A stretch of 64,000 nucleotides of DNA from Bugula neritina (lineage: Eukaryota; Animalia; Bryozoa), in assembly GCA_964035545.1 (NCBI GenBank), contig OZ037766.1, forward strand, positions 24,606,126 to 24,670,125, written 5' to 3'. Below are positions 5,693 to 49,100 of the stretch, one piece after another; the first letter of the stretch is position 1, and each line of letters starts with the position of its first letter. The notes beneath the pieces were generated by a model. It did not search any database. It was not told the DNA's origin and was given only the letters and a program-made list of their open reading frames with translations. The position numbers and the translations under genes are program-made.

Positions 5693-5865
5693 TAACAAAG
5701 TGAATGGCATTATTATACTCTATACTTTATAACTATATATAGCTTATTATATTATTGAATTTTTTAAAAAGTTAAAATTGAATAAATGAAAGATCAGAAA
5801 CTTAATTTATTAATACCAAAATTATTACATAATGTTATTTATTATTTAATTAGTGTTTGGAATTA

Positions 5866-5921
5866 CACACACACGCACAGGCACACGCACACGCACACGC
5901 ACACACACACACACACACACA
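5866..5921. repeat. (CA)n microsatellite downstream of channel A stop
   Basis: Seen directly. Confidence 0.9.
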
Positions 5922-7845
5922 ACAATAGTTTTTCATTATTTGTGATGGCTTTGATTGCCATGAGAGAAGGGAATTTTTAATATGGGTAATTCACAAGAAA
6001 AAAAAACATAAAAGTTGTTAACATAAAGCTGACAAAATTATGTTACTATTGGTAATAAAGTCGACATATGTTCTTGAACTCACATGGTTTGTTCTAATGA
6101 TAGCAACTAGTACTGCGGTTTGAATTTTACACATGAAAGCAATTATCATTTAAGTCAACTTTTAACATAAAAAGTTTCGACTTAAAAGCAATGCCACATT
6201 TTGTATAAAGCATGTATTTTATATAATTATGCAGGCATGTAGAATTTCACTCTAGCATTACATCAGATCTGGGTTTGGAAAGCCTGCAAGATGTTCAGAG
6301 ATGCAAACTACTTAACACTATGACTAACTTCCAAACCCACATTGCTGTATATTTGGCTGGCTTATATATACCAATATACCAGCACATTCCATCTAGCAAG
6401 TATGCAGAAAACTAGAACGTATACTTGCAAGGTTACATTGAGTAATAAATATACAACTGATACTAGCTATAATATATCTTGTAAACTCTAGCAACATGTG
6501 TTTCTAAAGATAAAAATCGTTTTACTTGGAGATCATTAAATACTACTGGTATATGCATGCTGTGTGATTTCATTGCCTCTGTACTAAAGTTAGGCTTTTG
6601 ATCTACCACCCAGTATCACCCAAACATACAATGAATTTGCTGTCGCGGTTTACATGAACTTGTGATTGTGGCTTCATTTGATGCAACTGTTGCCAATCAT
6701 CAAATGAAACATCCATGATTGTATAATGGGGAGTTTTGAGATGCAGTCATTTTTCATGCCACTGTATGGCTTAATAACCATACAATATTACATGAACTGG
6801 TTGAGTTGTATAGCAATGGATTGTTGTATTCCGATGTACATATAATTTTTAGTCAACCAAAAAGTATAGTGGCATAAAGATGAGGTAATTTAATTCAATT
6901 TATTATTATTAATTCATTTAATTAATTTAACCTAATAAACTTAACAAACTGAAACAATTTGCGTATCACGGCAAAGTTACATTTACACAGCTGCAAACAG
7001 GTTAATTTTGTTGGTTACTTTTTAGACAGAAGCTTACAAAATAAAATAAATTGTTCTTGTTTTAAATATTTTATTATTGTATCCATAATTCTATAACTTA
7101 ACAATAATCAAACATGGCATACGAATGTGTAGCAATACTGCATTGTAAAAAGCTAAGAATTAACCTGCAATAACATACAAACTTACGCATTCAGTTTTAT
7201 TTTGGGTAGCCTACTCTATTATAAATATAGCACAACATCAAATCAAATAGAGAAATTTTCAAGGATATAGCAGACTTGAAATATATACTGCCGCTACACA
7301 TATAAGAAATGCCTTTAAACATTTGTTCATCTATCTATGCTATTGTGAGTGGCGCTACAAAATTTTTTATCGGGTGCAAGACATGCCGTGTTATCTAGTA
7401 GTAGAGAGAATGCATTGAGTTCACAGCAAATGTACACAAGCTATTTAACCGTGAGTCTCCATAGCTTTATATTGAAAAGCTTGCATATAGTATCAATGCT
7501 ATAGTAATACAACAACCCAGACAGCTGTATATTTTTGTGCATGTATAGCCATAATAATTGCCATTTGTAAAAATATAATTTTTCAAACGTAAATTCATGT
7601 AATTTTTTTACATATATATACTACGTAGTACATACTAAAATTTTAGTGCCTAAATTAAAGAGTTGAGTTAGTCTGAGTAGTTCAACTTTCATGCATAGTC
7701 ATCTAAGCAGATAAAATGGTGCTTTGTTATGCTGGTACACTTATTCAAAGCTGCTGCACACAGTAACAGTTTACTGTACATACATTTATATATAGATCTG
7801 TGAAAAGTGTAGGCGCAAGAATATTTGTATGAAGAAACAGCACTG

Positions 7846-7889
7846 CAGGAGGAGGAGCAGCAACAGCAGCAGCAGCAACAGCAGCAGCA
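7846..7889. repeat. (GAG)/(CAG) trinucleotide tract upstream of channel B
   Basis: GCAGGAGGAGGAGCAGCAACAGCAGCAGCAGCAACAGCAGCAGCA; no supporting ORF. Confidence 0.8.
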
Positions 7890-8106
7890 CTGATTGAAGG
7901 ATCTGATTTCAATTTATATTGCCTAGTAGTGGCAGTAGTTGAAGAAAGTTGTTACAACAATTTTAGTAACCAGGTCATCTATGATACAAGTGGGTTTGTA
8001 TATAACTATGTCTTGAAGATATTAAACAAAGTTATTTTAATGTTTTTTAAGTTAAACTGACTCCTAAACATTTAGGTGTGTATATGTAATGTTGAAGTAG
8101 TATAGA

Positions 8107-8325
8107 GAGCAGTTGTGGTCTAGGAGTTAAAGCACTGGTCTTGTAAATACAAGGTCAGTGGTTAGAATAAAAGTCATTGGTAATGTTAGGAAGTCCACAA
8201 CTACTCCTTTGCCAGAATAGAAAACAAGTCTTTAGCACCTGTTAGAGACTTTTCTATCAGAGGTTTTCCATGCAGTATGACAAATATATAAACCCAACTG
8301 AGTGGAATATAAACCCAACTGAGTG
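8107..8325 (+). mobile_element. tRNA-derived SINE-like repeat, family 1
   Basis: GAGCAGTTGTGGTCTAGGAGTTAAAGCAC head, shared body, ATAAACCCAACTGAGT tail repeats. Confidence 0.65.
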
Positions 8326-9121
8326 CGTAGACATATTTAGGCAGTGGGAAGATTTTTATATTGTAGCTAATTATTGATTTAAAAGTATTAACTTGCTAAC
8401 AGCTTAGTTTAATCAAAAAGACATTTATACATATTTCATTCAGGTCCCTCGAAAGCATTTTAAAATTTCTCCTTAGACCTAATTGAAGCATCTTTTGGAA
8501 ACTAACAAAGACACAAATAAACTCAGACAATTCTGCTGTATAAGACTTGATTTGATTTAAATGCCTACACTTTGTGTTACTTTTAATAAAAATCTATGTT
8601 ATATACACAGAAAGATAGAAACCACTAATAGTGGTAATTTATATTATTCATGTAGATATTAATATTTCAAATTGTAAAACTGAGTTCACATTTTAATATA
8701 TAAAAAAGGTTATACAAAACTTCATGCTTGTCATCTACAAAATTATAATTTAAAAAAAGTGGTCTACAAACGACAAAATTGTTTCTTCAAGCGGTGTATC
8801 TAGTATTTTGCTATGACAATTGAAAAATACTTTTGCCCCCCCCCACTGGGAATCAAAACTGATACCTCTGGCTTGCAAGCAAGTGTGCTAACCATGCATT
8901 ACACTACGGGACCATTGGGTAAACTCATGCATCACTACAGTAATTGGAATTAAAAAGAGTAAGTCATTTACACTGCATGGTATATTGCTTATAATTTATA
9001 ATGATAATAATACCAATTTAAGTTCAATTTAACCCAATAAAATTTAAACATTATAATATTTCAACATTTTGATTGTTTTGTTCATACGTTAACATAAGAC
9101 TAAATTTTAAGGTGCTTTAAA

Positions 9122-17687
<8,566 letters not shown>

Positions 17688-18446
17688 GATAGGTCCTGCT
17701 ACCTGATCAGAATATAGTTGTGAAAGGTAAACCAAATTGGTGGTGGTTTTTCATTCATTGGTTATTACTCAGTAAATTTGTATCATTTTTACTCTTTTAT
17801 TAAATAATTATAAAAAGAAGCTACAGAAGCATTCTATTATAAAGCTGAATACTTCAATTTTTCTAAATCTAATACAACCTCAATAACTAGCCAGTGATAA
17901 AATAGCATTGTTCATCCTTATACTGTATATTAGCATAAGATAGAATACCAATTATTATGTAGATTTATAAAACCATATGCATGATTTGGTTGGGGGATTT
18001 TTGTATATAATATATAATTATATTATATTATATAATTATAATGTTAGGCCATACTAGCTTTTTAACTATAGTAGTTAACATACATGTTTGGAAATTTAAT
18101 ATAAACTAACATTATACTTGTATTGCACTGTATAATTATGAACAATATATGCTACTACTATTGACTGTGTATTAAACTGTGTAGTTAGTTTCATTCAGAT
18201 AGCTATAGTGTTCCTGAATTTCTATGATTAATATAATTAGTATATGCTTAGTAAAAAATCAGTCTTATAACAATAATTTGAGAGTGGAAAATTTTTATAC
18301 GCGTGTCAAGAATAAAACTTCAAAGTAGCAAAGACTACATTTATAGATAATTATAGTTCCATTTTATTTTTGCATAGTTTTTCCGACTGCTTTCATGTTT
18401 GCTCATTTTTTTGTTATACACATTTATGTATATTTTCTTTTGCTTA

Positions 18447-18718: not shown

Positions 18719-19901
18719 TTTTCACTTACAAATTGTAGCATTATTAAAGGGTGCTTAATCAAATGGATGGATAGATCACAGCTGTTATTAGTTAGTTAAA
18801 ACATCTTTACAGTACAGCGAGGAAATAAGTTTTTATAAATGCATGCATTTCTCATCTTTAGAAAACTACATTTGATTTTTTATAGCTACAAATTTAAATT
18901 AGAAATTTTAAGCTTTAAGCTTTCGACAACACATTTTGTTTCTAGCAAAACATTTCATACACATTTAACAAATCAATCTATCAACTCTTTTATGTCTAGC
19001 CTTTTTCCTATAACACCGCTTGGAGCTAGACTCAAATTCAAATTCTTAGTAATAAGGACTAGAAACAAACAACTGTAGAACAGGCAAATTATAGTTTGTC
19101 AACTTTGAGAAGGTTACCTGCTGGTGCAGGGTATACTACATGCACATACTGCTTTAGATAATGTTTTTACACAGCGGTTTATGCAGCATTGTAGTCTATT
19201 TATTGTTCAATCATTTGCAACTGTTTCTTACAACTGTATATGCGATAGTCCCTATTAAGTAAAAGCTTAAAACTACAAAATATAGTGCAATCAGCACAGA
19301 TGCAATGATTATAGTTATTATATATTTCTAATATATAGTGCTAAAGCCTAAAATTTTATGTGTGAATTCTTTAAAAAAAATTGTATACTAGAGAAATTTG
19401 TTTATGATTAGAAAATTTTTATTGAAATTATAGTGCATGTTAGCCTGTTAATAACATCTTGGTGTTATTGATATAATTATCAATTTTTTTCTAGTAAAAC
19501 TTAGAAAAAAGTGCAACTTTTAAGCTGCAATAATGATGAATGATCAGAATAGTTATTACAATTATCTGTATAAATATATAGCTGAATATATTGCTTCTCT
19601 ATTTGCATTTATTATAACCAATTACCACACAATGTTATAATATACTACTTTATATTATAAACATACAAACAACAAAAATAAAAAACAATAGAAAAGATAT
19701 TCTCTGATCCTTGCTATAATTTTGATTGTTGTTGTAGTTATACCTAATCTATAGTCATAGTTTGCAAGAAATATTGTTTTAAAAGCTCTATTAAATTTCT
19801 AAACCAATTATTGTATAATTTTAGAAACTGAAAACTGTAAAATATACAGTAGCTTTGATAATTTTTTTATTTCAATGTTCATCATTAAAAGTTTTTGCAT
19901 T

Positions 19902-21050
19902 CTATGTGCTAAACTCCCAGAGCTTAGCATATCTACTTGGTTCTCCCTTTTCAGCTGCCACGTCTGAATAATCACGACTCATCACATTCTTTCCGTCGTC
20001 ATCGTATCTGATAGTAAAAACACCACAAACCAAATTATAGTTTATATTTATTGTTGAACTCTGATAAATTACTTTATAAATTTCAAATAAATTCAAGAAT
20101 TTTTTTACAACCAGTAGATTACTTGCTATACTGCAGATGAATAACAATTAAGAAACATGCACTCATTAGTACATAATTTTTGCACTGAAAACTTAAAAAC
20201 GATGCGTATCCAGACATGCATCTTAATCTACAGAGCACACTGTGTTTGAAACGTTGCAGTTTAAAAAGAATTCACAGTTTCTACAGCGAGTGTAGAAAAT
20301 TAATGAATGAAACTTAACTATAATACATGTACAATAATTTTAACAAAGAAAGTGATTGAATAAATAAGATATACCCAGGTATATTCCAATGCTCCTTTGG
20401 ATTTTAGATTAGAATGTCTAAATCTGGTTGAGTTGTAAATAGCTATAAATTACATAGATATGTGACAAATTTTGATTGAAAACTATTTGCAAAGAAAGAA
20501 AACTATATTGATATTTGTAAAAATTTGTTATTGAAAACTTTAAATCATTTTAACCCCGTTTACAGGGTAATCAGTAGGCTATTTCAGCCGGCGTTTTAGC
20601 TTTTAGAGTTGATATTTGTACTGTATATCTTATATGGAATCACTTTACCAACTTTTTATGCTTTTATACAGAAGATTTATATGCAACCTATAGCTCTTTC
20701 AGCATTTTAAAAATTTTCTAAATTCAAGGGCACCTTTAACATCATAAATATTCTATTGCTATATAGAAACGTCTACTAACTTTGCTGCAGCACAGGACCT
20801 TCCAAATGATTTGCTAAGTGCTCTCATATAAGTTGCATCATTACCACAACACAGTCCTATATATGTCAAACCCATCTTTTTACACTCTTCTGCAAACCAT
20901 CCAATTTCTTTAAGAGATACGTAATGCTCCTTCAAGTCACTAGGAAAACAAGGCTCACCTAAAACATGTGTGTAACTTACCTAAAGGAGAGTGTGGCAAA
21001 ATAAAGACACACACGTGTGTGTGTGCGCGTGCATGTGTGTGTGTGTGTGC

Positions 21051-21146
<96 letters not shown>

Positions 21147-24100
21147 TGGTGTGTGTGGTGTGTGTGGTGTGTGTGGTGTGTGTGGTGTGTGTGTGTGTGT
21201 GTGTGGTGTGTGTGTGTATTGTAAAGTGCAGTTGGTTAAGCAATTCACTTAATTTCTTTAATACCTACTTTACAAATAAAAATGTGTTTGAAATCTGATA
21301 TACTCGTATTAATGACCGCCAACCTTTTAAAAAGATTAAAAAACCCAATTATTTCAAAATACATGTCTTTAAAATGGTATAATGTGCAAATTAATTAATT
21401 CATTATTTTGAAATAAAAGTAAAATTTTTAAAATCCTGTTTCACTTAAACAGAGGAAAATTTATACAAACTATAATAATTCTATTGACTGACGTTAGATA
21501 AACAGCAATTAAATTACTTTGTCTTCACAATGATAGCTATGTTAATTTATTTAAACTGGGTTGCTGCTATATTTTTTATTAAAAGTTATGGAAATATAAA
21601 TTTTGTGCTAACCGGCTTTTCTTCTTTATTGACAATGATTAAGTAAACAAAAACATGTTTACAATGCTAGATTACAATAGTTTATGTAACTCTTCTGCTC
21701 CTATTCTATTTTGGTTCTGTATGAATACAAATATTTACACAACTTAATCATGATAAAAAAAATATGATGTTTTCATTGTTTGAACAAAGTGATAAAAAAT
21801 TCAAGTTAAAAACTGCAGCTAAATATAGCCAAAAGCTTTCATTACATACTGCATTATGAAACATAACAGCCACGTGGATTGGAACTGAGGTCGATACATG
21901 GGCTACCAGTGATGATAAGATTTGGCCCCATTATATATGACTAGACATTTTGAAACATCGGTTAATTAATTGCTCACCTGAGTCTCTGTATTTAAAACCC
22001 TGAAAGCTGTGGCACTTCTCATCAGTTCTATAGCATATTGGCAAGCAGCCAACAGGTCCCTGGAAATGTGACGTCATTGTTTCATAACAATTTATCTCAA
22101 GCATATTATGCAACATCTTACATAATTATGCACTTTTCAAGTTTAGTCCAAAAGCTTGGGAAGAAAAGCAAATGCTATCTTGTATACCAATTGTTTAAAT
22201 TTTAGAACAATTCAATTCCTTCTTTTTGGAAATTATTTGAGAGTATAATATTTCAACTTTAAAGGGAAATCATACTGGGGTCAGTTGCATAACTGCCATT
22301 ACCTTACAAACAGCTTTACATTTCTCTATAAGAGGGAGCATAGTCTTAGGACCTCTAGCACAATTGAGAGCAACCACATCAGCGCCCTCACTTTCTAGAC
22401 GAGCCAGAGCTTCAGGAACTGGAACTTCATCAAATGTAATCTCTTTCTTGCTGGTTGCACAAATACTGACTACATTAGGCAGATCTGCATAAAAAATCAG
22501 TGGAAACATTTGAAACATTTGAAGCAGAACATACATAAAAAATAGCCTTGGGGTTAGGGTATTTTTGCTGCACTTGTTTGTACAATCTGTAAACATACCT
22601 CTATCAGCAACTGAAGGATAAAAATACTGATGCTGGTTTTTAGGATTTCATTGCAACAAACTAACTTAAAAAAATATAAAAGACTTGTTAAATGTTGAAC
22701 ACAATTATAATCTCATGTTGCTATAATAATTATTATAGCATGCTATATACTGACAAACATTTTTTTAAAGATTGAAAACTTAGATAATTACAAAAAACTA
22801 TTTCAGCTTGCAACTGGTTGATAATTATTTGATGCAATGTTATATCCCCAGTATTACAACTAGAAATTTTTGTGGTGATGCTAAAGCATGCAAATGAAGA
22901 AAATTTATAGTTGTTAATTTTCAACTCAAACTTACCAAAGCGCTTCATAACTTTCAAAGCTAAAGACGCTTCTCCATAGTCCCAGAACGTCTCTGCTATC
23001 ATGAAGTCTACACCAGCTTCCTTTGCCCACTGACATTGCTCCTATAATTGGATAAGACAATACCAGATTTGCATGTGATCATTTTAATTCTACATTAAAA
23101 ACTAGTACCTACTGAATTTTGTAAATATTGCATGTGATTTTAATTAGTATTTACATGCTTTAAAAATTTATTGCATTGAAGGTAAAACAATAAAAATTAC
23201 ACGCAAAAAAGTCTACTTTGGTGTGCTGCTAATGCAAGTAAGGTACGCCGAACATTATTATTTTCCTTTAAGTCTTGTTCTACCATCATGGTAACAGACT
23301 AACAGTAGGTTGCGAAGAAAGGCTTGAACATCTCCATAATATGTACTATGTGTTATGTGCTATGTGTTATGTGTTATGTGCTATTTGTTATGTGTTATGT
23401 GCTATTTGCTATGTGCTATAATGCGCTATTTGTTATGTGCTATGTGCTATGTGCGATATGCTATGTGTTATGTGCTATTTGCTATGTGCTATGTGCTATG
23501 TGCTATTTGTTATGTGCTATGTGCTATGTGCTATGCGCTATGTGCTATGTGGGATATGCTATGTGCTATGTGCTGCGTTCTATGTATAATATGCTACATA
23601 TATACTATGTAAAAGAGCTATGTATTACTAACACCTAAAAATATCAGTATATACCACCTAATAGATATTGAGCATAGCACATAACATGCATATAGCACTT
23701 GACACATAGTAATAATATAACATAACTTTGCTAGGTTTATCAGCTGTCTATCAACAGTTTATCAAGCATGTATAAATAATAAAGTGGCGACTGAATCAAA
23801 CTCAACTTTATTTAACTTTTAATACCAGGTTACAATTAAAAAGGTCATAAGATAGAAAATGCATCTGGTTATGTAAAGAGCACTTGCAGGGGCGACAAGT
23901 ATATTCATGCTATATGTGAATAGATTTCTTACTGATGCATAGAATCATAGCAATTGTTTATAAAGCTGGAGTCAGTTGTACCAGTATCTTTATCATAATT
24001 ATTCAATTTCATAGTGTTATAATTAGCTTAATCTTAATTTGATAGAAGTTATTGGAAGTCATTTGAAAATTTCTTGGATGCGGGATTTGTTATTAATAAA

Positions 24101-26592
24101 AAACAACCTTGATTACGTTATTTGAAATAGCACATTTTATTCAAATCAGTCTATATAGTTGAAAAACAATTGTCAATAAGTCATGAAATTGAACTACAAT
24201 GCTATAATAATATACCTGCTAAGCCAAAATTGATTGTTATATGACAATGCAGTAACTCCTAATAATTATTCAATTTCATAGTGTTAGAATTAGCTTAATC
24301 TTAATCTGATAGAAGTTATTGGAAATCATTTGAAGATTTCTTATTTGTTATTAATAATTGGTTGTGTAAAAATAAGTTACTTATTCATATTATGGAGCTC
24401 TTTTAATTCGAACCATACAATCCATGCAGACAAAAATCCTTAGATTAGAATGGCTGTTTGTGTTTGCTAAACGTGTAGAAACATGTCAATAAAAATGTAA
24501 TATTATATTGCACCAAAATGTATATTCCCATAATAAACAGCTTTCATTTTCTCTATGAAAAGATTATGGACTTTGAGTTAGATTATCATATACTCTATTA
24601 AGTACTCTACTTACAGTAAACATGTTCTCACACTCTTGTATGGTCTCCGGTTTGTTAGGATCATACAGATTAGAGTTACAGAGACCTCCAGCAAATAACT
24701 TGTTATTCTCTCTGGCAACCTCCTTCGCTATTTGTAAAGCTCTTTTGTTGACTTCTTCAAGCTCTCCTTCTCTACCAACATCCTTCATCTTCTCTCTGGT
24801 GGCATAATACTGCAATATTACAAAAAAATTAAAAGTTTTGGAAGTTGTCCAGCTTATCTCACAGGAGAAGTGCAATCAAACTAAACTGCAGGTAAAAGCT
24901 GTGATAAGTTGTTGTGTAATACAGAGTCCAACATTCTGAACCTTTTTGATATTTTGACGTATTAGTATGTTTCTCCTAAGAGCTACAGTTTGTTTATGAT
25001 GGAGAGTTTTTAAGTTTAATTCAAGTTAGACTAATGTAGCTTTGTTAGTTTTGAGCATTTAAAATTGTGATTGAGCTGCAACTAAATTTTGGTTCAGGCT
25101 AAACACACTTTGCCAAACCGTAAGCCTTAACATAAAATGTCAGCCATTTTTAATGTGTCCGGGCTGAGGTTTTCAAAGTCCGCTATTAAGGATGATCTAT
25201 GACACCTCATTGGACAATTGTTCAATAGGAGGCCGCAGCAACCGTTTTGAATCAAACAGTGCTTGATCCTAACGCTGTACAGAAAGCTTAAGCATTTGTA
25301 AAATGGCTGACATTTTATGTTACAACCAAGGGTGCAGCGAAGTGTGTCTAGGGGGTTAGTGTCCTGGTAGCAGGAGTTCAGGTGGTACAAGCAGTGGATG
25401 TAGGGGCAGTTGAGGAGTGCCACTTTCAGTGTGGTATTAGACAGTGTACCTGGTGCTACATAACAGTGATAACTCTATACACATATTTGAAATAATATAA
25501 ATGCAGAATCATTGCTTATGCAAAATTATAAAATAAAATATCCGTAAAAAAATTTATGAGTCCAAGATTAAAGTTTATGATGTTAAGTTGCTCAATTGAT
25601 TGGCCTATAGCATGAGTATCTTTTACATCAAGATTAACTTGTGGATAACTTGCTAATAATCTAACAAAAATTTTTTTGAGTTTAAACAATAAGTAACCTA
25701 AACAGTTACCTATGTCTGCATGCTCAGCTTTTTGAATATTTTACTTTATAAAGTTAGATATGCTGTTCAATTAGGTCATAGTTCTTTAACTATTTTACTT
25801 ATTTAAAGCTTCTCACCGTAAAAGCCTGAACTACATCTGTACCAGCATCAACAAACTCCTGGTGAAGAGCCCTGACACATTCAGGGTAGTCCAGGACCAC
25901 TTCAGGAACAAAGCTGGCTGGCTTAACTTTACCTCTTCTTATAAACTCAAAGAGATAGCCTTCAGCTATCAGAATAGGTTTGTTAGTCTTCAGATACTCC
26001 CGGAAATCTGCATCAAGATATAAACAACTAGTAATCCTTTTTTTCTTAAGATTTCTTGTCACTTTTGATAAAATGAAATACAACCAAGGAGCCTGTGATT
26101 TCGAAAATTGCTTGTTGGTAAATGACTAGCATATTATAACTTACTTCAAGAATTTTGCTAACAGTACCAAAAAACAACAGCTAAAAGTTGAATTCTTGTT
26201 ATAAATAGGCAAAAGGCTAGAAAAGTTGTGTAGCTATAACCAATTAATTTGAGTGAAGTCTAGCCCTTATACTTATAACAATTATCTGAAATGTTCAAAA
26301 TTTAACTCATTTATACTACAGTAATCTACATATTTTGTAAAGAGCTTCATTTTCTTCGGCATAATATGCATGTAATGTATTTTAAAATAATAGTTTTTAA
26401 TTAGTTAGTACCCACTGTAGCTGTCTTATTCAATGTCTAATCTTTGGCAATTAAAAAATATGGCTCTTTACTCTCTTGATTTTGCATGCAAATTGATTAT
26501 ATAAATTTTAAAACTTGCAAATAAATGAATATCAAGTGAAAGTTAAAATAGCTTCACAATAGTAAATAACCTAAATAATTTTACTTACCCAT
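19902..26592 (-). CDS. BHMT: Betaine-homocysteine S-methyltransferase-like (homocysteine S-methyltransferase family), copy A, 347 aa
   Basis: Exons (minus) 26592-26589 (ATGG|gtaagt), 26007-25817, 24809-24615, 23041-22936, 22484-22303, 22059-21978, 20958-20781, 20007-19902 = 1044 nt, open. Motifs [36 protein letters not shown]; Zn ligands in LNCARGP and IGLCCG. Symbol indicates family, not proven orthology. Confidence 0.88.
21015..21217. repeat. Interrupted (GT)n microsatellite in BHMT-A intron 6
   Basis: Seen directly. Confidence 0.95.
23332..24357. repeat. Interspersed repeat with expanded (TGTGCTA)n minisatellite; second copy at 32121-32808
   Basis: Both copies begin CTCCATAATATGTACTATGTGTTATGTGCT and are near-identical over ~600 bp. 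Confidence 0.85.
25098..25357. mobile_element. MITE, same family as 3261-3529, in BHMT-A intron 2
   Basis: Ends GTGTGTCTAGGGGGTTAG; subterminal inverted repeat TAACATAAAATGTCAGCCATTTT / AAAATGGCTGACATTTTATGTTA. Confidence 0.7.
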
Positions 26593-28286
26593 TGATTCGC
26601 TTTAAACACAGATCAATGAACAAAATGATTTACATTTCCATTTTAAATAGCCTTCGATACCACGTCTTTATCTGTTTGACCTTGCAAAAAATAAGAAAAC
26701 TGGAGTATACCGGTTTGTTTCACTTTGAAGTCTGCGCAAATGCAATACCAAGATAACAACAGCTGGTAACATAGACTTATAGATAAACTATTAGCATCTT
26801 TGAACAAAATTACAACATAGCCTACAGAAAAACAGTAGACTGAATGGTGTGCTAATTAGACTGGCAATATTCTTGAAAATATTCTTAAAAATATAAATGA
26901 CAATTGATTATAACGGTTCCTTAATAATTTAAGCCATTAATTTACATTTTACGCTTACAATACGCTGCTGTAACAAATAGGCCCAACAATTCACACTTCA
27001 CAGTCATGTACACATTACCAACTGAATCCAAAGTACATGTTTGTTATCACTGCATGTAAACACTATGACAAGTTTTTGCAATGTTGTGCATATTCTCACC
27101 GTATATAGTGAGGGTATTACTAACTGTCACAAACACTTAGCCACGTACGGTAATAATTTTCTGTCTCAATTCAATACTTCTTTCGTAACAGCAATCTTGT
27201 AAATTTAAGCACTTGCTGGTTAAGTTTGGAAAAAAGCCCACAAAATGATAAAAATGTTAAAAAGCTTAGCGTTTTCAACAAAGCAAATGTAAAAAAATAG
27301 CTGATGCTACATTAAGCAATTTAGATTAAATATAGCTATTTTTAAAGGGTTAGCGAAATGTTCTTTTTTGATTCAGAATAGACCGGTGAATGTAATGTAG
27401 GTTAGGTACTTTTTATTATGTTATATAACTCAAAGGTATCCAATTTCTTTAGTTGACATAAGCAACTAAAAATCATAGTAATAAACAGTAAAATCAAATA
27501 GAGGTGTAGCATTTTTGTGCACACGAAATCTAGCTTAAGCAATGGTACATAAAAGCTGAACTATACCAAACTGTTGCTGTAATAATTCTGTCAAGCAGAT
27601 TAAAATAGCTGTCAACTTTTTTTAAATTTAAACTTTATTTTACATGCTGCTAAAAAGCTTGGCACAGGTTTTGTGAAAGCTATAACCAAGATTATTTACC
27701 AATTTTGTGCGAGTGCTTATTATATATGCTAAAAACGAAATCATATAACTCTAGCCTACTCAATATTTAAAAACTTGTCAATTGTCAAATCGATGATTTT
27801 TAACAAACTGGCATGAGTGAAAGACTTCAAATGCATGGGACTGTGGGGACATCTATTCAAATGTGATGTCTTAGCTTAAAGAGTATATAATGCAGCACTA
27901 TCCCTTTCGGTGTACTTTGCCTTTGATTTAGCCCAATGATTGACATATACTCTCCAACTTGCAGTTTATGTTAATTTTTATCAATCTGTCTGAGCCAATA
28001 TATAAGCTTAATATAGCCACAGGTCAAAGGGAGGTGGAAAGTTACAGAAATCAGTTGATATTGTATATTTTTATCAATGATAATTTTTATATAAATACTG
28101 TTTCACATTAATTTGATGCTAATGTAGGCTTTCAACTAGAGGTCTGCCAAAGTTTGCCCGGCACCAAACCTTGAATAGAATCTGTCCAACTTCGGTTTAA
28201 AAAGACATGCCTGGTGCCTTTTTGTTTCTACCCAAATAAGTGACAGCGAGTGTGCATTCTATATGCTCTCAATTAGACATCTGTGT

Positions 28287-28378
28287 AGTGTTGAGTTTAC
28301 CCAGTGGCTCTTGTGGTGTAATGGTAGCACACTTGTTTGCAAGCCAGAGAACTCGGGTTTGATTCCCAGTGGGGGTGA
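28287..28378 (+). mobile_element. Monomeric family-2 tRNA-like repeat (others at ~8835-8925 minus and ~62328-62432 plus)
   Basis: TAGTGTTGAGTTTACCCAGTGGCTCTTGTGGTGTAATGGTAGCAC..GGGTTTGATTCCCAGTGGGGG. Confidence 0.65.
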
Positions 28379-29479
28379 AATTATTAGAACATAAAAAGAA
28401 TACTTAAAATCATGTTGAAGGATTTGCCAAAAAAGCTCAGGAAGTACATAAAATAATAATCTTGAGAGGTTAAATTGACTGAAACCGGAGCATCAAGTGT
28501 GCTTTATCCCTGTGTGGAAAATCTTCTTAAAGTTTAATGTTGAAGTTATATCACAATCTGTCAACATTAGTCAGAGTGATATACCAATAGCACACTTAGC
28601 AGCCAGAATATATAATAGCCGTCATGTGACCGAGTACAGCCAGTCATTTGGCAAGTGAACCGGAAGTAGCAGCATATACATGTATAAATGGTGAATGTGT
28701 GCCCAACACTACTATAGTAAACAATTATACAGCTATCATTGTTTTATAATCTTAAAATGTTTTCTACAGTAGAAATGTCCAAAGTCTGTAGTAGCTCAAG
28801 CAGAAACTAAAATCTAGGAACCTGGGAATATCAATTTTGTGAAAGCCAAATATAAGCAGAATTAAAGATTATATTTTGTTTCAATTCTCTACACCAGAAG
28901 ATAACTATTGACCTAAGACAATGATTTTTAGGGCCTAAAAGCGGAGTTGCATTTCTTGCAATATTTTTATTTTCATCTGCGATAGGAGTTGTTGCCCCAT
29001 AGTGCAAATTAGTCTTGCTTCTAATGTAAAAAAACAATTCCAGTTAGAGTAGACAACAAATCAGATTAGTGACTGTGATGGTAACTTTTTGAAAACTTTA
29101 ACTCAGTACAGAACATAAAATAATAGTTTGTAGCTCCTCGTTCCCAAAAGATATACTTTTAAATTAGTCATCTCTTTTCCTTATCTGAAAAGCATTTATT
29201 GCTACTAATTTGTTTACAATAGAAATTATTAGCTTTACTGCTTGTTCGAGTGTCACATTACAAAATTAGGTCTATATACGGTCCTATGACAGATTCCATC
29301 GTCATTTCCTACATTTAATTTTCAACAAAAGTATAAATGCACCATTACTTATAGCAACTGCATTAGACCATTCATTAGATATTAGAAAGAATAGACTGTA
29401 TTTCAAGGCAATTACAGCGAAGAAGCATTTTAGAATCTAGCTATGCTTTATAAAGAATAATGCTTTAAATAATCATGTA

Positions 29480-36770
<7,291 letters not shown>

Positions 36771-40123: not shown

Positions 40124-43100
40124 ATGGCCCAGGAGCACTTTAGGTATGTATTTTACTCTATTTAATTTGATTTTTATATAATTTTCATTTTCTTCCAGTC
40201 AGCACTGTACAAGGTTTGGTTTTCAACTCTGATGTTCATGATGATGATGATCGCATTTTGATTTTTGTTGAAATAAAAATAAAAGTCAAGTTTAACTTGG
40301 AACCTAACTTCAAGATATTGATAAAGATCGAGATGAAGAATAAGTGTATTGGTATGCCACCCAGAAGTATTGGCAGGCAGCCAATCATTAAAGCTTTCAA
40401 GCTTCAAAAGCTTTCACCAAAGCTACTATTAGCTGGCAGAGCTAGTTCATTCACTGTACTGCATGAGTCAGTGTATCATGATCAAACCGCCATATTTACA
40501 CTCTTTGTATGAATAAACTATCGGTTTCGGTATTGTGATGGCTAAGATTTTTATCCACGCATCAATATTGGTACGATTTGACAGTTAATAAACTCGAAAA
40601 CCTGTTGCCAAGTTGGCTAGTAGTTAAAGCATATCTTGCAACCAGACACAAACACAAACCGATACAGTACCAATATTGCTGAGGCTGACATGGACCGACA
40701 GGACATAGTTAATCTCAAAAAGCAACGTACTACTCTGAGGTCTAAGGTAACAATGCTAACTAATCTCATAGAATCAGCAATCTCTAGTAGCAACTCTACA
40801 CAAGTGGAATGCCTGCGATCTCAGCTTGAATCTACATATCAAGAGTTTCTAACTATCCATTATGACTTTTTGGAATATGTTTCATCAGATGAGTCTATGG
40901 AAGACATTGCTTATGTTAATAAGATGAGTCCAGTAGAGTACTATCAAGCTGTGAAGGCTAGTTATGACAAAGCTATTTCTGACTGTAATACTTGGCATAG
41001 CAAATTCTATAAAATCAAGCACAGCCTTATTTTAGCAATTAAGAAAGCCAATGGATTAGTTACTGATTGTACTGACAATACTCTTATCACTGAACATCAT
41101 AGGAAATGTGTAGCTCTTTCAGAAAGTTTGGCAGATACCATAGGTTTTTCTGATTTATTATTAGAACTAGACGAAGTTATTTTATCTTTAGATTATTGTA
41201 TGTCTAAGTTTACTCTTATGTCAAAGGCTCAGTCACAGAGCATGAGTTTCGAACACCGTGAATCTGATCCGTCCGTGGTCCGGTCCGGTCCCGCGGAGAG
41301 CGGTGTGGGTGGGGGGTCACCTTCAGACGGCGCGAGTCATGCACCGACTATGGTCGCGTCGAGTCGGTTGTTTTCTTCTAGATCACACCCTAGCACACAT
41401 GAGGCTACTCTTGCACCAAATCCAGGTGTCACAGCAAGCGGTAGTGATAGGCAGGTACTACGGGAAGATCACACATCCGGTGAAGCTTTGGCATCAAATC
41501 CAGGTGTCATAGCAAGTACCAATGTCAGAGATGTTCGTTTTTCTTCATTCTCAGTACGTGATCTACATGGTAGTCCTGATCGTGCAGCTCATTCTGAATT
41601 TTTGATTCGCGGCGCAACTTCCTCGGTTGTCAATGCATATGATAGCTACCCTAATGGAACTAGTCAAATAAGTTATGACTCTAGACATACAAGTGGAAAT
41701 AACTTCAATTCATCTATACATAAAACTCATTCACAACCCAAGCCATTTAACGGCACCAGATACTATTGGCCGGAATTTAGGTCAGTATGGCTAAGATATG
41801 CCACTATGTTTTACGATGATGTTGATAGGGCTTGTGAATTAAAAAAATTTCTCACTGGCGAAGCTCTGGAGATGGTTCAGCCAATCTTCGCAACTCAGCC
41901 TCAAGCTTACGAGAGAATGATGTGTAGATTAGAAGAGGTCTACAACGATCCTAGCATGAGTGTGCAAGCAGTCTTCAACAATCTACAAGAACTAAAGCCA
42001 GTAAAGGAAGGAGATGCACGAGAACTCGTCAAAATGGCCAATGCAGTGGAAAGTTCGTACAGCCAACTCGGTGAAGTGGGACTTTTGCAAACTGTTACGC
42101 TGCCACAGGTCGATACTCTTGCAAACCTATTACCTACAAGCATTAGACGGGACTGGGATAGACACTTTCACTCACTTACTCACGAGGAGAGAATCAAGCC
42201 ATTCCCACACCTCATGAGGTTTCTAGAGCAGGAACGGCAGATAGCCCTCAGACGCATAGAAACTGTAAACCCGCAGTCCTCCAGTATGCATAAACAGAAG
42301 GTGAAAATGTTCCACGCTGAAAGTAGTGGCCCAAAGTCTAGTAGTAACAGGTCTACTAATAATAGCAAAATCATTGATAGTAAGAATTACTGTTTTATTC
42401 ATTGCAGTAAGCGTCATTGTCTTGTTGAGTGCAGAAATTTCTTGGCGTTGTCTGTAGAGGAAAGATACAAGTTAATAAAAACTAATTCTCTATGTGTTAG
42501 GTGCTTGGGTGCCCATGAGCCTAAGCGCTGTCCAAATTTCCGAACCCCTTGTTCAGTCTGTGATAAAACAACTCACCATGTATTATTGTGCATCAAATCA
42601 GCTGAAACTAATACACATACCAATTGTAATACCAACAAGAATAAACTAAAAGCTGATCAAATTAAGCACAAAAGTAACGAAAATTCTGAAACGCCTGCTG
42701 TTAGCACCACAGTCCATGTGTCTCCCAATCATGGAGCGCACAATCATCCAGGAAATGCTACAGTATTTGCCATTCAGCAGGCTCAAGTAGTGGGTACATC
42801 TCATACAGCTATTATATTCTTTGACGGCGGATCCAATGCGTCATTCATATCGGAGAGAGCTGCTAAAGCGTGGGATGCGCGACAGATAGATAAGGTGAAT
42901 TTGGAAATGAACACACTTGGTGAACATGAAGTTAGCGAAACTTCTACTATTTATGAAGTAAAGTTACAAACTCCAAAGGGAAGGACCTTTGCAATTTTAG
43001 CTTACAGCCTTCGGAAACTCACAGGGGCTATCAACAGGCCACTTGATGCAAACATCCTCAAATCTCTCTTCCCGAAAGTAGATACTCACAAGCTATTGAA

Positions 43101-46100
43101 GAAGACGGGACCCATCGACCTGCTAATTGGTAACGATCTTCTTGGATTGCATCCAAAACACCAAGTTGATCAAGCAGGACCTCACCTCTATGTATATTCC
43201 GGACCCTTTGGACTGTGTGTGCAGGGATCACACCCTGCCCTTAGCAACTTTTCTACACTTCCATCCTCATCTTTTCATGTACAGGCTACCATGGCGCATG
43301 AGAAGTTAGAGGAAGTTGAATTCACTCAAAGCATACACAACGACACGCTCAACAGTTGTGATTTTGAATTGTCTACAGTTTCTACGCCAACTTACAGTGT
43401 CAATAGTCCCGACGCATCTCCCAGTCAGTTTGCAAAGTCATTTTCAAGACCTCAGACTATTATAAATTATGGTGAATCACATACTATAGCCACTGAATGT
43501 GGTATGATTGAGTCAGCCGATGATTCCGACCCTTTACAGAGCCCGGGAGACCCAGACACTGAGTCTGCAGGACAAATCGGTTCTGGACAGTTGAACAGAT
43601 CTTTAGAAGTCAATGACTCTATGTCCATGTCTGTAGAGATTAAAAGAAAGTATGAATTTACTAGCAGTACCTCTATCACACAATCCACGCCTGTTCCGGC
43701 CAATGAGAGGGCAGAATCTAAAGCGACTGCTAAAGGGGTAAACAAAGCTACAGCTAAATGTCGTATAGCACCCATAAAACAACAACTCAAGATTCCTCAA
43801 CTAGAACTCAATGCGGCCGTATGGTCAAAGAGAGGCAGACAAGTTATTAAGACTGAAATGCGCTATGAGTTTGAGAAAGTTTATCAGCTTATCAATTCTA
43901 AAACGGTGCTCAAGATGTTCCAAAAGAAGTCAACAAGGTTTCATGTTTACGAAGGTGTACGCATTGGAGAAATTCAAGGAGCAACCAATGGGGATATGAG
44001 CTGCTGGCACTGGGTAAGTGGCAAGGAAAACACAGCAGATTGGCTTACAAGAGGGAAGCCTGTCAATGACATTGGACCTGAGAGTGAATGGTGGAGAGGC
44101 CCAAATTTTCTCTATCTGCCTGAGGATCAATGGGATATAAAATCGCCATCTGACTCGAATGAGCTTGTCTTTGGAGAGAAGAAAATAGTTTACACCGTCA
44201 CTGCATCAACAGAAGTCCAATCATTTATTAAATATGAAAATTTCAGCAGCCTCAAGAGTCTAACATGGACAATAGCTCGAGTTTGCAACATCTTCAAATA
44301 CAAAAGTTTTAAGGGAATCCAATCTGATCTCATCACCGTGGAAGATCTACGGCAGACCAAACTCTACTTACTGAAGCAGGTACAACGCACTATAGATTCT
44401 GAGTTGAGCAAGATTAAAGAGAAATACACAAGGCTTCACCCCATTAAGACAGAGAGTGAAGTATGGATAGTAGGCAGTAGACTCCTAAGGCATAACCCCA
44501 TGACAGCGATTAAAACGCACACGCAATCAATCTTTCCCACCTCTCACTACTTTACTTACTTGGCAATGCGGCAGGCACACATAAACAGCTATCACCGTGG
44601 CCGAGATGCAACACTCGCAAGATTCCGAGAAGAGTTTTGGACTATGCAAGGATCTAAGGTTGCTAGGGGCATAGTAACATCATGCCAAATGTGTCGACTC
44701 AAACAACCTCGCTTTACTGATCAACTGATGGGAAGTCTTCCTACAGAACGACTAACGACCGGACCGCCATTCAACAATGTAATGATAGATCTTTTTGGTC
44801 CGTATATTGTGAGAGGAGAAAAACAGACTAGAACTTCGAGCAAAGCTTATGAAGTAATATTCACAGACATCAGTTCACGAGCAGCACACATCGAAGCAGT
44901 TTTCGGATATGACAGTGATTCTTTCCTGTTGGCATTAACTCGATTCGTCAACATTCGTGGCTGGCCATCCAAGATTTATTCTGATCCTGGAACACAGTTA
45001 GCTGGAGCAGAAAAAGAACTCAAAGATATGTGGAGACGCATGGACAAAGATTCTATCAAGAAAACCAGTGCAGAAAATGGGTTGCAATGGGAATTTGGAC
45101 CTGGTGACAGCCCCTGGTATCAGGGCGCTGCTGAATCACTCATAAAGGCTGTCAAGAGATGTTTCACATTTTCAAAGAGCAACCGCCGGCTTTCACCTAC
45201 AGAATTTCTCACAATCTGCACTGAAGCTGCAAACACACTAAATGAAAGGCCATTGGGATTACTGCCAGATTCAGACTCTGAGATCAACATATTAACACCT
45301 AACTGTCAACTTATTGGACGACCCTTCATCAAGAATCCTGGCAACTGGAATACAGACTACTCCTTAAGGGGGCGACTGGCTTTGGTAAATACAGTCTCAG
45401 ATGACTTCTGGCGGAAGTGGACCGAATTGTATGCACCCACACTGATTCATCACCAAAAGTGGCATACCCCAAGACGAAACTTTCAGGTGGGAGATGTTGT
45501 AGTGGTTATGGATCCAAATCAGCTGCGTAATCAGTATAAACTAGCTCGAGTACATCAAGTATATCCGAGCAAGGATGGCGTAGTAAGAAAAGTAGCCTTT
45601 TCCTACAAAAACTATAAGGTAGCAGGGAAACTGAGGGACTATGTAGGCTGTAAAGACAATATCATAACCCGCAGCGTGCATAGGTTGGCTTTATTAACTG
45701 AAGTGAACCCATAAATGACTGATCTACCTTCTTGGCCGCGTGTACGCTCGTGTCGCTGGAGGGGTCTGCATTCAACCATTTTTCGGGGGACGGGCTGGTG
45801 CGCGGAGGGGTCAGCGGATTGGTGCAAGAATTTCATGGTCTGTGACTGATCCTATTTTGTTTTGTTTGTTTTGTTTGTTTTGATTTACATAATTTATCAA
45901 TATTTGTCAGAATAGTATCTGCCAAACAATTCGACCCCACCGATGTATTGGTATGCCACCCAGAAGTATTGGCAGGCAGCCAATCATTAAAGCTTTCAAG
46001 CTTCAAAAGCTTTCACCAAAGCTACTATTAGCTGGCAGAGCTAGTTCATTCACTGTACTGCATGAGTCAGTGTATCATGATCAAACCGCCATATTTACAC

Positions 46101-49100
46101 TCTTTGTATGAATAAACTATCGGTTTCGGTATTGTGATGGCTAAGATTTTTATCCACGCATCAATATTGGTACGATTTGACAGTTAATAAACTCGAAAAC
46201 CTGTTGCCAAGTTGGCTAGTAGTTAAAGCATATCTTGCAACCAGACACAAACACAAACCGATACAATAAGACTTATTTTAGAACCAACATGAAAATTTTG
46301 TATTTATTGAAACTTGCAAGTGAATGTTCACGTTAGGTTGGTTGTAACTTTGAATAATATTAATTGAAGTTTATAAAATAAAATGGAATTGAAATTGATT
46401 CAAATAATTGAAATGATAAAACTCTGATACTGATAGTGATTTTATTTTAACAATAAAGTTTTGTTTTACGGTTTTGCTTCAAACTTGATTAAAATTGCTG
46501 TGCCCAGGGAGTAGAGTGAGGGCTACATGTAGTTGAAATCAGAATCCAATTCAAACTATATTTATAATTATTGTTAGCACTCAATCAGTAGTCTCCAATA
46601 GTAATACTATTGGTTTTTGAGTTACTATTTACTTTTAGTATTAAAATCTAGGTATTACTATTACTATTAGTATTGGTTTAGCTTCAACTTTTGGTTAACA
46701 TAAGTTTTATTTTCACTTGTTCTCATAGTGATAGTGTTAGTTTAAGTAATTACTTATAGTTATTACTAATTAGTTATTAGCCCTAGCTTAGCCTCAAATT
46801 TGAAATTTAAAGTTGAAAAATTTTGAACTTATCTTTGAAATAGAATTATATTGTTTTAAAAGCTAGCTTAAAATGAAAATATCCAATTTGATTTTAAATT
46901 TATGAAATTATGGTAGCTAAAACAAATTATGAGAAATTAAATAGCTCTAATGGCTAATCATTGAATTATTTAAAAGTGCACCTATGTTACTTATAATATA
47001 ATATAAGGTAAATATTAAATTAGAAAATTGAATTTCTCAGTTTTTTTTATGAACCTGGGAATGCATTGTCATCTATTTTTTAAGTTCAGTGATAAGTTTT
47101 TATAAGGTGTACGTCATTGAAATGCCATTTAAAAGTATCAAATTGACAGGCTGTTTTAGCATTAGTGAAACATCTACGACTATAGCACTGTCTTACTAAG
47201 TTAAATATTAAGTGAACGTAGCTATAAAGTTGATCCCATCTCTTTATCACCATATTAGTCGTACTTTTACTCAGTTGAGGTTTCATTAGACATTGTATTC
47301 AATTTCATATATTTAAACTAATGTAGGGATGCGGAGACCTAACCTAATTATTAAATTGTGAAAGCAATTTGTTGGTAAACATTAAGGTTTATTCTGGTCA
47401 AAGTATCTATCCATACTAAACTACTTCATTTTAGTTTTAATGAAGTGATTTTTGATAACAAATATAGGTTGTGCAAAAGTAAAACTGTGCAATCGCTGTC
47501 ATGTTATAGCAACAATTATTTGTTTATGCATTTTCGTTATTATGGAGTATTTTAAACTTAGTCACCAATAATTACAATATTTCCAAAGGTTGCTGACAGT
47601 ACAGGGCAATAGCATACTCAATATTGTTACCAAATTTGTTGACAAATGGTGTCTAAGACCTGCGTTGCAAGTGCAGTTAAACATTTAGTGAAAATAGAAA
47701 CATTCAATTAAATATTAACCTGTAATTAGCTCATATATACTATGGTTTGGCATTTGCCTATTTTCTAGATCTAATATTTTAAAAATATGTACTTACCATT
47801 TATTTAATTTTTATAACGTTTTAGCAAAGGCAATCAGGCTTTCGTAGACGAAGATTATGCAGAAGCTGTAAAGGTTAGTTATAAAAATGTTATGGAAAGT
47901 TTCAATGCTTGTGAGCAGTAGTAGCACTGTTACAGCACAGTGCAGTTGTTTGACAGAATTACCCTCATCTAAGTTTGTTTAATTGATTAAATAACAAATG
48001 ACATGTGCACAAAACTGGCTTGCGTTTTTGCTATAAAATATCTTTTTAATATTTTTCAAGCTGTTTTGTAGTGTTGTTGTATTCATCCCTACGAATTTAT
48101 CCATACTTTGTTACTGTATGAATGCTATTCTAACTTTGTTAGTGTTTCTAGCACTACACTGATGTTATTATAACTCTATTACCATGTGTTTTAGCACTAC
48201 ACTGGCATTATTCTAGCTCTATTAGCATGTGTTTTAGCACTACACTGATGCTATTCTAGCTCTATTAGCATGTGTTTTAGCACTACACTGATGCTACTAT
48301 AGATCTATTAGCATGTGTTTTAGCACTACACTGATGCTATTGGAGATAACCCGGAACATGCTGAATATTATTCCAGCAGATCTTATGCTTATTTACGACT
48401 CAACAACTATCCAGGTAAATGTTCCTTGTATTGCTTGAATACCCATACTCTTATCCAGTGTTGTGGGTTGCATTTCACATAATCAATGAAGTTGAGTAGT
48501 CTTTGCTTACAAGCTTGATGATGAGAAAATTCTAGAAACTTTGGTTGATTTTTTGCTTTTATAAGTTTTTTTTATTTGAAGTTTTTGGTATTTTATGCTA
48601 AAATATGTATATTTATTCGAGTGTGCTTAGGTTTTAGAGCTTGCTGAAACAATGAAACATGGTATTATTTTTAAACATTTCAATTCTGTCTAGAATTGCT
48701 TTTTTGAATTTAATCAAAGTTTTTATAATCCAATAGTTTTTAATAGCTGAGTAATATTTTTCTATTGGGTAAACTCTGTTTTGTGCATTTATTTTACAAG
48801 TAAATATGTCATATGATTATTGCACTTGGCATTTAACTCTGGTCAAATAAATTTTATCTATATACAGCTATTCGTAATCAATTCACATGGTTTAGATTTC
48901 ATTTCCATACGAATTAGTGATGGTTATTTAATGGAATAGTTAGCAGTCTAGATGCCACATAATTATAAAGAACAGCTCAGAAGGACTAGGCTTTTATATG
49001 CCTGCTCTTTGCAAACAGCAAATTGTTGGGAAGTCTTTTATTTTGATATTGTACAGCACGCCTACCTTCCTTTATATTTGAACATAAACTTAAAAACTAT

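Follow-up and report, generated by a model that had tools for sequence, protein, structure and literature searches.

A probable self-primer, predicted to be joined by splicing in most families, in a BEL/Pao retrotransposon lineage without a tRNA site

The ICTV profile of the Belpaoviridae (2021) describes an 18-nt primer-binding site (PBS), specific to the 3' end of tRNA-Arg or tRNA-Gly, together with a polypurine tract measuring about 10 nt, and it calls the replication of BEL/Pao elements poorly understood (PMC8742986). Priming of reverse transcription by the element's own RNA has been described for the Tf1/sushi group and predicted for Tcn1 and TAR (available text of PMC6317226, PMC4600332 and 10.1101/2022.12.06.519325). 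In Tf1, according to the accessible part of PMC7175516, the PBS is bound by the first 11 nt of the RNA, at the end of which RNase H cleaves. The BEL/Pao clade surveys PMC3118150, PMC554778, PMC6238403 and PMC8556966 do not mention the PBS, and no report of self-priming or of a splice-built primer in BEL/Pao was found in the literature that we searched, outside which lay most subscription journals, Repbase reports and supplements. The analysis presented here suggests, with a probability that we put at roughly 0.8, that a BEL/Pao lineage without a tRNA site primes with its own RNA in a Tf1-like manner and that splicing builds the primer.

The element occupies positions 40345-46265 of the window, by which we mean the whole 64-kb stretch of Bugula neritina DNA that was analysed; apart from the target-site duplications, the features of the element given below are on the plus strand. 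It is flanked by an identical 5-bp duplication, ATAAG, at 40340-40344 and 46266-46270, and its two 322-bp LTRs (TG...CA), at 40345-40666 and 45944-46265, are without a mismatch between them. The original prediction had placed the 5' LTR's end at 40666, an AATAAA at 40587 and an ATG at 40690, with no TGG site, and the sequence bears out all of this: the AATAAA (40587-40592) is the predicted poly(A) signal in R, TGG is absent between the LTR end and the ATG of the ORF at 40690, and this single ORF of 1674 aa (40690-45714) encodes Gag, protease, a partial RNase H and integrase. Its Pfam matches comprise DUF1759 and zinc knuckles (Gag), DUF1758 (protease, weak) and H2C2 and DUF5641 (integrase), together with a Peptidase_A17 match that covers the last third only, namely the C-terminal part of the Pao RNase H region. 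These are the BEL/Pao set of Pfam families, and by its predicted proteins the window element is BEL/Pao. The only named protein matches came from the bryozoan Watersipora subatra (47-49% identity), and no named reference BEL/Pao element was among the protein matches. Contigs of runs X1, X4 and X8 join across the element (40338/46265 and 40343/46303), and this empty site indicates that the insertion is recent and absent from some chromosomes. Elsewhere in the window, two gene copies about 11 kb apart on the plus strand (~1150-17700) have a weak amiloride-sensitive sodium channel (ASC) match, and two gene copies about 10 kb apart on the minus strand (~19900-36000) have weak homocysteine S-methyltransferase matches, below the Pfam cut-off.

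The Gag-PR-RT-RH-IN order is complete by Pfam in the relative P0003, and reverse transcriptase (RT) is present in the relatives P0002, P0003 and P0005; in the 1674-aa ORF of the window copy, a Pfam search and a comparison with P0003 found neither YVDD nor an RVT match. The ORF aligns to P0003 over residues 6-862 and 1022-1673 only, and P0003 residues 827-1351 (525 aa, with YVDD inside) have no counterpart in it. Because RT was found in these three relatives and not here, we regard the window copy, as judged from its ORF, as a non-autonomous derivative in which RT is absent and RNase H partial. The place of RT and of the first part of RNase H is taken by 43308-43751, which lacks YVDD. Contigs of other copies leave the window sequence at 43307 and enter it at 43752, indicating that intact relatives exist. 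The replacing stretch keeps the ORF open and was also found in the four contig runs compared; an RT-less subfamily may exist.

Immediately after the 5' LTR, the bases at 40667-40678 (GTACCAATATTG) are exactly those of the reverse complement of 40563-40574 inside the LTR, which confirms the observation behind the original prediction. The former is the predicted PBS, which adjoins the LTR end and is not of the tRNA type; the latter is the predicted self-primer, and a second copy of this 12-mer lies in the 3' LTR at 46162-46173. The 12-mer consists of two adjacent palindromes, CAATATTG and GTAC, each self-complementary, a property that had been passed over in the original prediction along with the missing RT and the exon-exon joint at 40569/40570. 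The chance of the match had been put at about 2e-5; a complement of at least 12 nt was found in 69 of 200,000 dinucleotide-shuffled LTRs (any start offset 0-4), or 3.5e-4, which makes the match less striking than had been thought. In addition, 491 of 63,500 mock sites in the window had a complement of at least 12 nt within the preceding 322 nt, and 241 of these 491 measured 30 nt. Given these chance rates, the match in the window copy taken alone is suggestive, not strong, and it is the relatives that carry the case. The LTR/PBS duplex is present in both the best and the centroid folds of 40560-40692, a segment whose fold energy is ordinary (z -1.53; 15 of 200 shuffles equally good). In the contigs of other runs, 40563-40572, 40574 and 40667-40678 carried no listed variant; at 40573 a variant had a depth of 34.6 of 3186 in X8.

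To find relatives, a 40-protein alignment was used as the query, and 55 loci in metagenome contigs were obtained from the best 80 of 157 confirmed matches; scans of viral contigs and genome contigs found no relative. Of these 55 loci, 23 have a readable LTR-leader junction, L029 gave an LTR and 31 gave no junction; L029 and L036, two contigs of one family, were combined. A second LTR confirms the LTR end only for the window element, L019, L038 and L029/L036. Among the matches listed, a TGG site was present at none of the 23 readable junctions, and all 23 leaders start with GT, the junctions having been chosen partly by an A|GT motif. The original prediction had named a TGG site in autonomous copies as evidence against it, and none was found in relatives with intact RT-bearing ORFs. 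The apparent junction of L026 was rejected, as it sits in leader repeats common to L028/L029/L036. At the junction of L019/L021 the LTR ends in AA, not CA, in both L019 LTR copies. In L002, L006, L018 and L044, the 3' LTR continues into a second leader and a gag start, which represents either tandem elements sharing an LTR or assembly collapse.

In most relatives there is no contiguous complement anchored at the junction. Among the matches listed, the 20 families with a readable junction comprise nine in which the complement is split, three in which it is unsplit, two with only the downstream exon in view and six with neither half. In the split form, 5-7 nt follow an acceptor and the remainder precedes a donor farther upstream. 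The unsplit complement measures 10 nt in L027, 10 nt in L044 and 11 nt in L040, where the LTR end is putative and the predicted pairing probability of the 11-mer is 0.00; L038, the sister of L027, has one mismatch where L027 is perfect. Only the downstream half was seen in L017 (6 nt) and L041 (5 nt with one G-U). A donor half was also sought in the 3' tails of L005, L008, L014, L023, L035, L039, L041 and L053, which gave matches of 4-5 nt only and stop before the acceptor or without an LTR. In the distant L055, which lies outside the main clade, 10 nt (1815-1824 / 2158-2167) after an acceptor-like AG pair with sequence after ATACA; its LTR end is putative and its donor match is 3 nt.

The split form was evaluated by a PBS-blind enumeration, in which 3-25 candidate introns were listed per LTR and the longest joint-spanning duplex anchored at PBS +1 was then determined. 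Eight of the nine split families gave 10-15 nt across the joint versus 5-7 nt unspliced, the spliced duplex being 13 nt in L001, 14 in L002, 11 in L006, 12 in L013, 10 in L016, 10 in L018, 11 in L019 and 15 in L029/L036, whereas L025 gave 3 nt under the acceptor filter and 10 nt with a looser one. In those eight families, a shuffled PBS reached the observed length in 0-2 of 5,000 cases, and only 3 of 72 non-cognate LTR-PBS pairs reached 10 nt. The assignment of each LTR to the PBS of its own family was the single best of 362,880 permutations of the nine families, a count that is not an independent-sample probability, since the families are related by descent. Across 13 families (nine split, three unsplit and the window's), the duplex does not vary at positions 1-2, whereas each of positions 3-10 is occupied by 2-4 types of Watson-Crick pair and never by a mismatch. 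Complementarity in relatives, which had been named beforehand as a refutation test, is thus both conserved and covarying. In the intron-bearing families, as assembled here, the complement of 10-15 nt exists only across the predicted exon joint; the downstream exon contributes 5-7 nt of it, and the base that immediately follows the LTR is the one paired with the complement's 3' end. After splicing, the predicted probability of pairing is 0.86-1.00, against 0.00-0.07 before it, and when the fold boundaries are moved, 8 of 10 best structures retain the duplex (those of L013 and L018 do not).

These results bear on the view that the match is due to chance or is a palindromic dimerisation signal. 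In the window copy, the self-complementarity of both halves of the 12-mer, in an AT-rich LTR, and the number of window positions with a 12-nt inverted match nearby speak for such a view; non-palindromic versions in relatives nevertheless still pair, across the splice joint, and the PBS-blind enumeration contradicts it, so that we regard this explanation as extremely improbable.

The introns of the nine split families are GT-AG and 103-304 nt long, with the donors GTAAG in seven, GTGAG in one and GTATG in one, and the acceptors CAG in seven, AAG and TAG. An AATAAA or AATAAA-like word follows 6-29 nt past the primer end in all nine, exact AATAAA in six. In the integrase tree, from which 4 short and 7 no-hit loci are omitted and which has no named outgroup, the split families are scattered through a 44-row clade (97/94) and do not form one cluster, which indicates that they are not copies of one event. 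For the transcript start, put at A40564 in the original prediction, promoter motifs are inconsistent: TATA-like words occur at -20 to -41 in 5 of the 9 split families, and the window copy has none near -30. In the LTRs of L001, L002 and L025 we noted additional donor- and acceptor-like sites, and the relatives' LTRs may hold several introns. Because of such additional introns upstream in some LTRs and of the inconsistent TATA-like words, the upstream exon may be longer than its paired part. We also noted a YGTYGC/AC word that recurs 28-60 nt past the primer end in the window copy (40603-40608) and 6 of the 9 split families and is a candidate poly(A) downstream element or pairing partner.

A second alternative is that a host tRNA fragment or another small RNA primes, as in half-tRNA Copia lineages, and that the LTR match is incidental. 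Half-tRNA priming has been described in other superfamilies (available text of PMC6317226), the LTR is followed by two bases that do not vary, and the tRNA comparison covered only the one tRNA gene of the window, all of which would accommodate such a primer. The site nevertheless differs between families and tracks the joint of its own LTR, a family-by-family change in step with the LTR for which a host tRNA would offer no explanation. The window's one tRNA gene, against which the check proposed in the original prediction was made, pairs over 5 nt at best. We consider priming by a tRNA fragment very improbable. The tRNA gene itself, at 34544-34614 on the minus strand, was called tRNA-Gly(GCC) by ARAGORN and is possibly a pseudogene or a repeat.

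In the window's own family, four runs were compared over 40480-40760. Contigs of other copies begin or end exactly at 40570, and the loose letters before 40570 end in AG in two contigs of X1 and one of X3; on the donor side, a single X1 contig runs on past 40569 into a GT donor, and its 17 loose letters are the entire basis for that side. Contigs in all four runs also cross 40569/40570 straight, as the window copy does. These breaks with GT and AG indicate that the intron has been lost precisely from the window copy, so that intron-bearing and intron-less forms coexist, as far as the contigs represent them, in the window's family. In the register of the relatives, the window 12-mer is 7 nt of upstream exon and 5 nt of downstream exon, joined at 40569/40570. 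The exact loss of a GT-AG segment is the trace left by splicing followed by reverse transcription, and a second such loss was found in L019, where a 205-nt GT..AG segment (7175-7379) of the 3' LTR is exactly missing from the 5' LTR. The sequence basis of the splice reading is contigs, and the RNA or DNA labels of the runs are guessed. A larger contig-depth share of the straight-through form in X8 and X7 (guessed RNA) than in X3 (guessed DNA) was set aside, contig depth being no measure. The self-priming reading of the original prediction is supported by the relatives, but it was incomplete, as the primer is intron-split in most of them and the window copy is intron-less and RT-less.

Under the proposed model, the transcript would start in the 5' LTR, upstream of the donor, host splicing would join the two primer halves, and the exon joint would pair with the PBS. 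As in Tf1, RNase H would cut at the end of the duplex, in the window copy at a predicted cleavage site after 40574 that is placed by analogy with Tf1, and the new 3'-OH, paired to PBS +1, would be extended into U5, so that the DNA would start with the TG at the LTR end. The strong-stop DNA, which in these families covers 63-110 nt of R-U5 and includes the poly(A) signal, would then be transferred to the 3' R, and the 3' LTR would serve as template for the remainder of the LTR. Since the joint lies inside the primer and would never be copied, the intron would be lost only in a cycle in which the 3' LTR, too, had been spliced; the product would be an LTR free of the intron and with its primer already joined, as in the window copy, for which an intact relative would have to supply RT and RNase H. 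The usual escape of the 3' intron from splicing and the plus-strand start lie outside this model. Retention of an intron may protect an element from the HUSH silencing of intron-less RNA, or it may improve export.

It is also conceivable that the lineage is self-primed by the 3' LTR copy of the RNA or by a separate short LTR transcript, and not by the 5' end. The 12-mer is the same in both LTRs, contigs in runs guessed to be RNA span the joint with at least 50 nt of upstream LTR, and the 5' transcript start is predicted only, which would all fit a primer of this kind. Its end, however, would lie 6-29 nt before an AATAAA-like word and so would not be a natural poly(A) end; moreover, a spliced 3' copy that templates the LTR would be expected to lose the intron in each cycle, and 9 of 13 testable families keep it. 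On balance, we think a primer from the 3' copy unlikely. The duplex might instead act as an RNA switch that depends on splicing and governs gag translation, export or packaging, with priming by other means. The predicted PBS lies 10-193 nt upstream of the gag ATG across families, the duplex is predicted to form only after splicing, and priming by the duplex itself is inferred from sequence, which would suit a switch. In 13 of 13 families, as delimited here, the duplex nevertheless reaches exactly to the base that follows the LTR, a requirement for a primer but not for a switch, and another primer site is absent at the readable junctions; a switch therefore seems distinctly unlikely, and a primer taken from the 5' end and built by splicing remains our preferred reading.

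The plus strand appears to lack its usual primer as well. At the place expected for a polypurine tract, the window copy has a C-rich tract (45929-45943) with 6 purines of 15, and in all 18 valid rows a polypurine tract is absent, the 15 nt before the 3' LTR holding 3-8 purines and being mostly C-rich (the L018 row was mis-anchored and dropped). A G-rich stretch was observed farther upstream in the window copy (~45786-45811) and also in L001. The idea of a conserved hairpin where the 3' LTR begins was set aside, the folds there being weak and variable. Taken as a whole, it is a little more probable than an even bet that the two standard primers have both given way to others in a widespread animal BEL/Pao clade, with a minus-strand primer built by the spliceosome from two LTR exons, such that only spliced RNA would be reverse transcribed and the intron would stay uncopied inside the primer, and with a plus strand that would start from the C-rich tract by an undescribed route.

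If the proposed mechanism is correct, BEL/Pao would be the third superfamily with self-priming, after Ty3/gypsy, for which it has been shown in Tf1, and Ty1/copia, for which it has been predicted. A primer that exists only after splicing would tie retrotransposition to host RNA processing, for which no precedent was found in the literature searched, and it would offer a retroelement a means of preserving a spliceosomal intron while replicating by reverse transcription. Such a clade would be overlooked or ranked too low by annotation tools for which a tRNA PBS and a polypurine tract are obligatory.

Among described systems, the window clade resembles the Belpaoviridae in its LTRs (0.2-1.2 kb in that family), single gag-pol ORF, Gag-PR-RT-RH-IN order and BEL/Pao Pfam families (PMC8742986), and it differs from them in having neither a tRNA PBS nor a polypurine tract, and in the window copy no RT. 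Its membership is thus assigned by proteins; the 322-bp TG...CA LTRs and the 5-bp duplication fit the Belpaoviridae, while RT, a tRNA PBS and a polypurine tract are the features missing from the window copy. The fungal GalEa Copia elements, with their Conserved Hairpin Site, likewise have no tRNA PBS and carry a palindromic word directly after the LTR; that hairpin, however, lies inside the leader, and its authors found no LTR complement, whereas here the partner is in the LTR and a palindrome is not required (available text of PMC5445492). Ogre is also an LTR retrotransposon with a spliced intron, but its intron lies between PROT and RT, controls translation and builds no primer (available sections of PMC6317226). 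The accessible portions of PMC5445492, PMC3601003, PMC4558846, PMC8220671, PMC6934838 and PMC9873768 contain nothing similar to a split primer. Self-priming has likewise been predicted from sequence in the TAR (Houba, Osr-1) Ty1/copia and the Tcn1 plant lineages, which belong to other superfamilies and for which the available text of PMC6317226 describes no split primer.

The closest functional counterpart is Tf1. In Tf1 and Tf2 of S. pombe, Tj1, Tosmo and the Tf1/sushi chromoviruses of Ty3/gypsy, the PBS likewise adjoins the 5' LTR and pairs over about 11 nt with RNA of the element's own LTR (available text of PMC7175516, PMC4600332 and 10.1101/2022.12.06.519325), and here a PBS adjoining the LTR pairs over 12 nt in the window copy and 10-15 nt in 12 related families. 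The Tf1/sushi group, however, belongs to another superfamily (Ty3/gypsy, with a chromodomain), whereas the Pfam families found here are those of BEL/Pao, and no chromodomain match was found by Pfam. In addition, a polypurine tract and a three-duplex 'pretzel' are features of Tf elements that are not consistently found in the window clade; in comparison with shuffles, a side duplex downstream of the PBS stood out in 2 of 10 families (window 3/300, L018 1/300) and one at the U5 end in 1 of 10. The Tf1 primer is formed by the first nucleotides of the RNA, whereas in the window clade the position of the primer in the transcript is predicted only and the primer is intron-split in most families. On this comparison, the window clade would work like Tf1 without being a member of Tf1/sushi.
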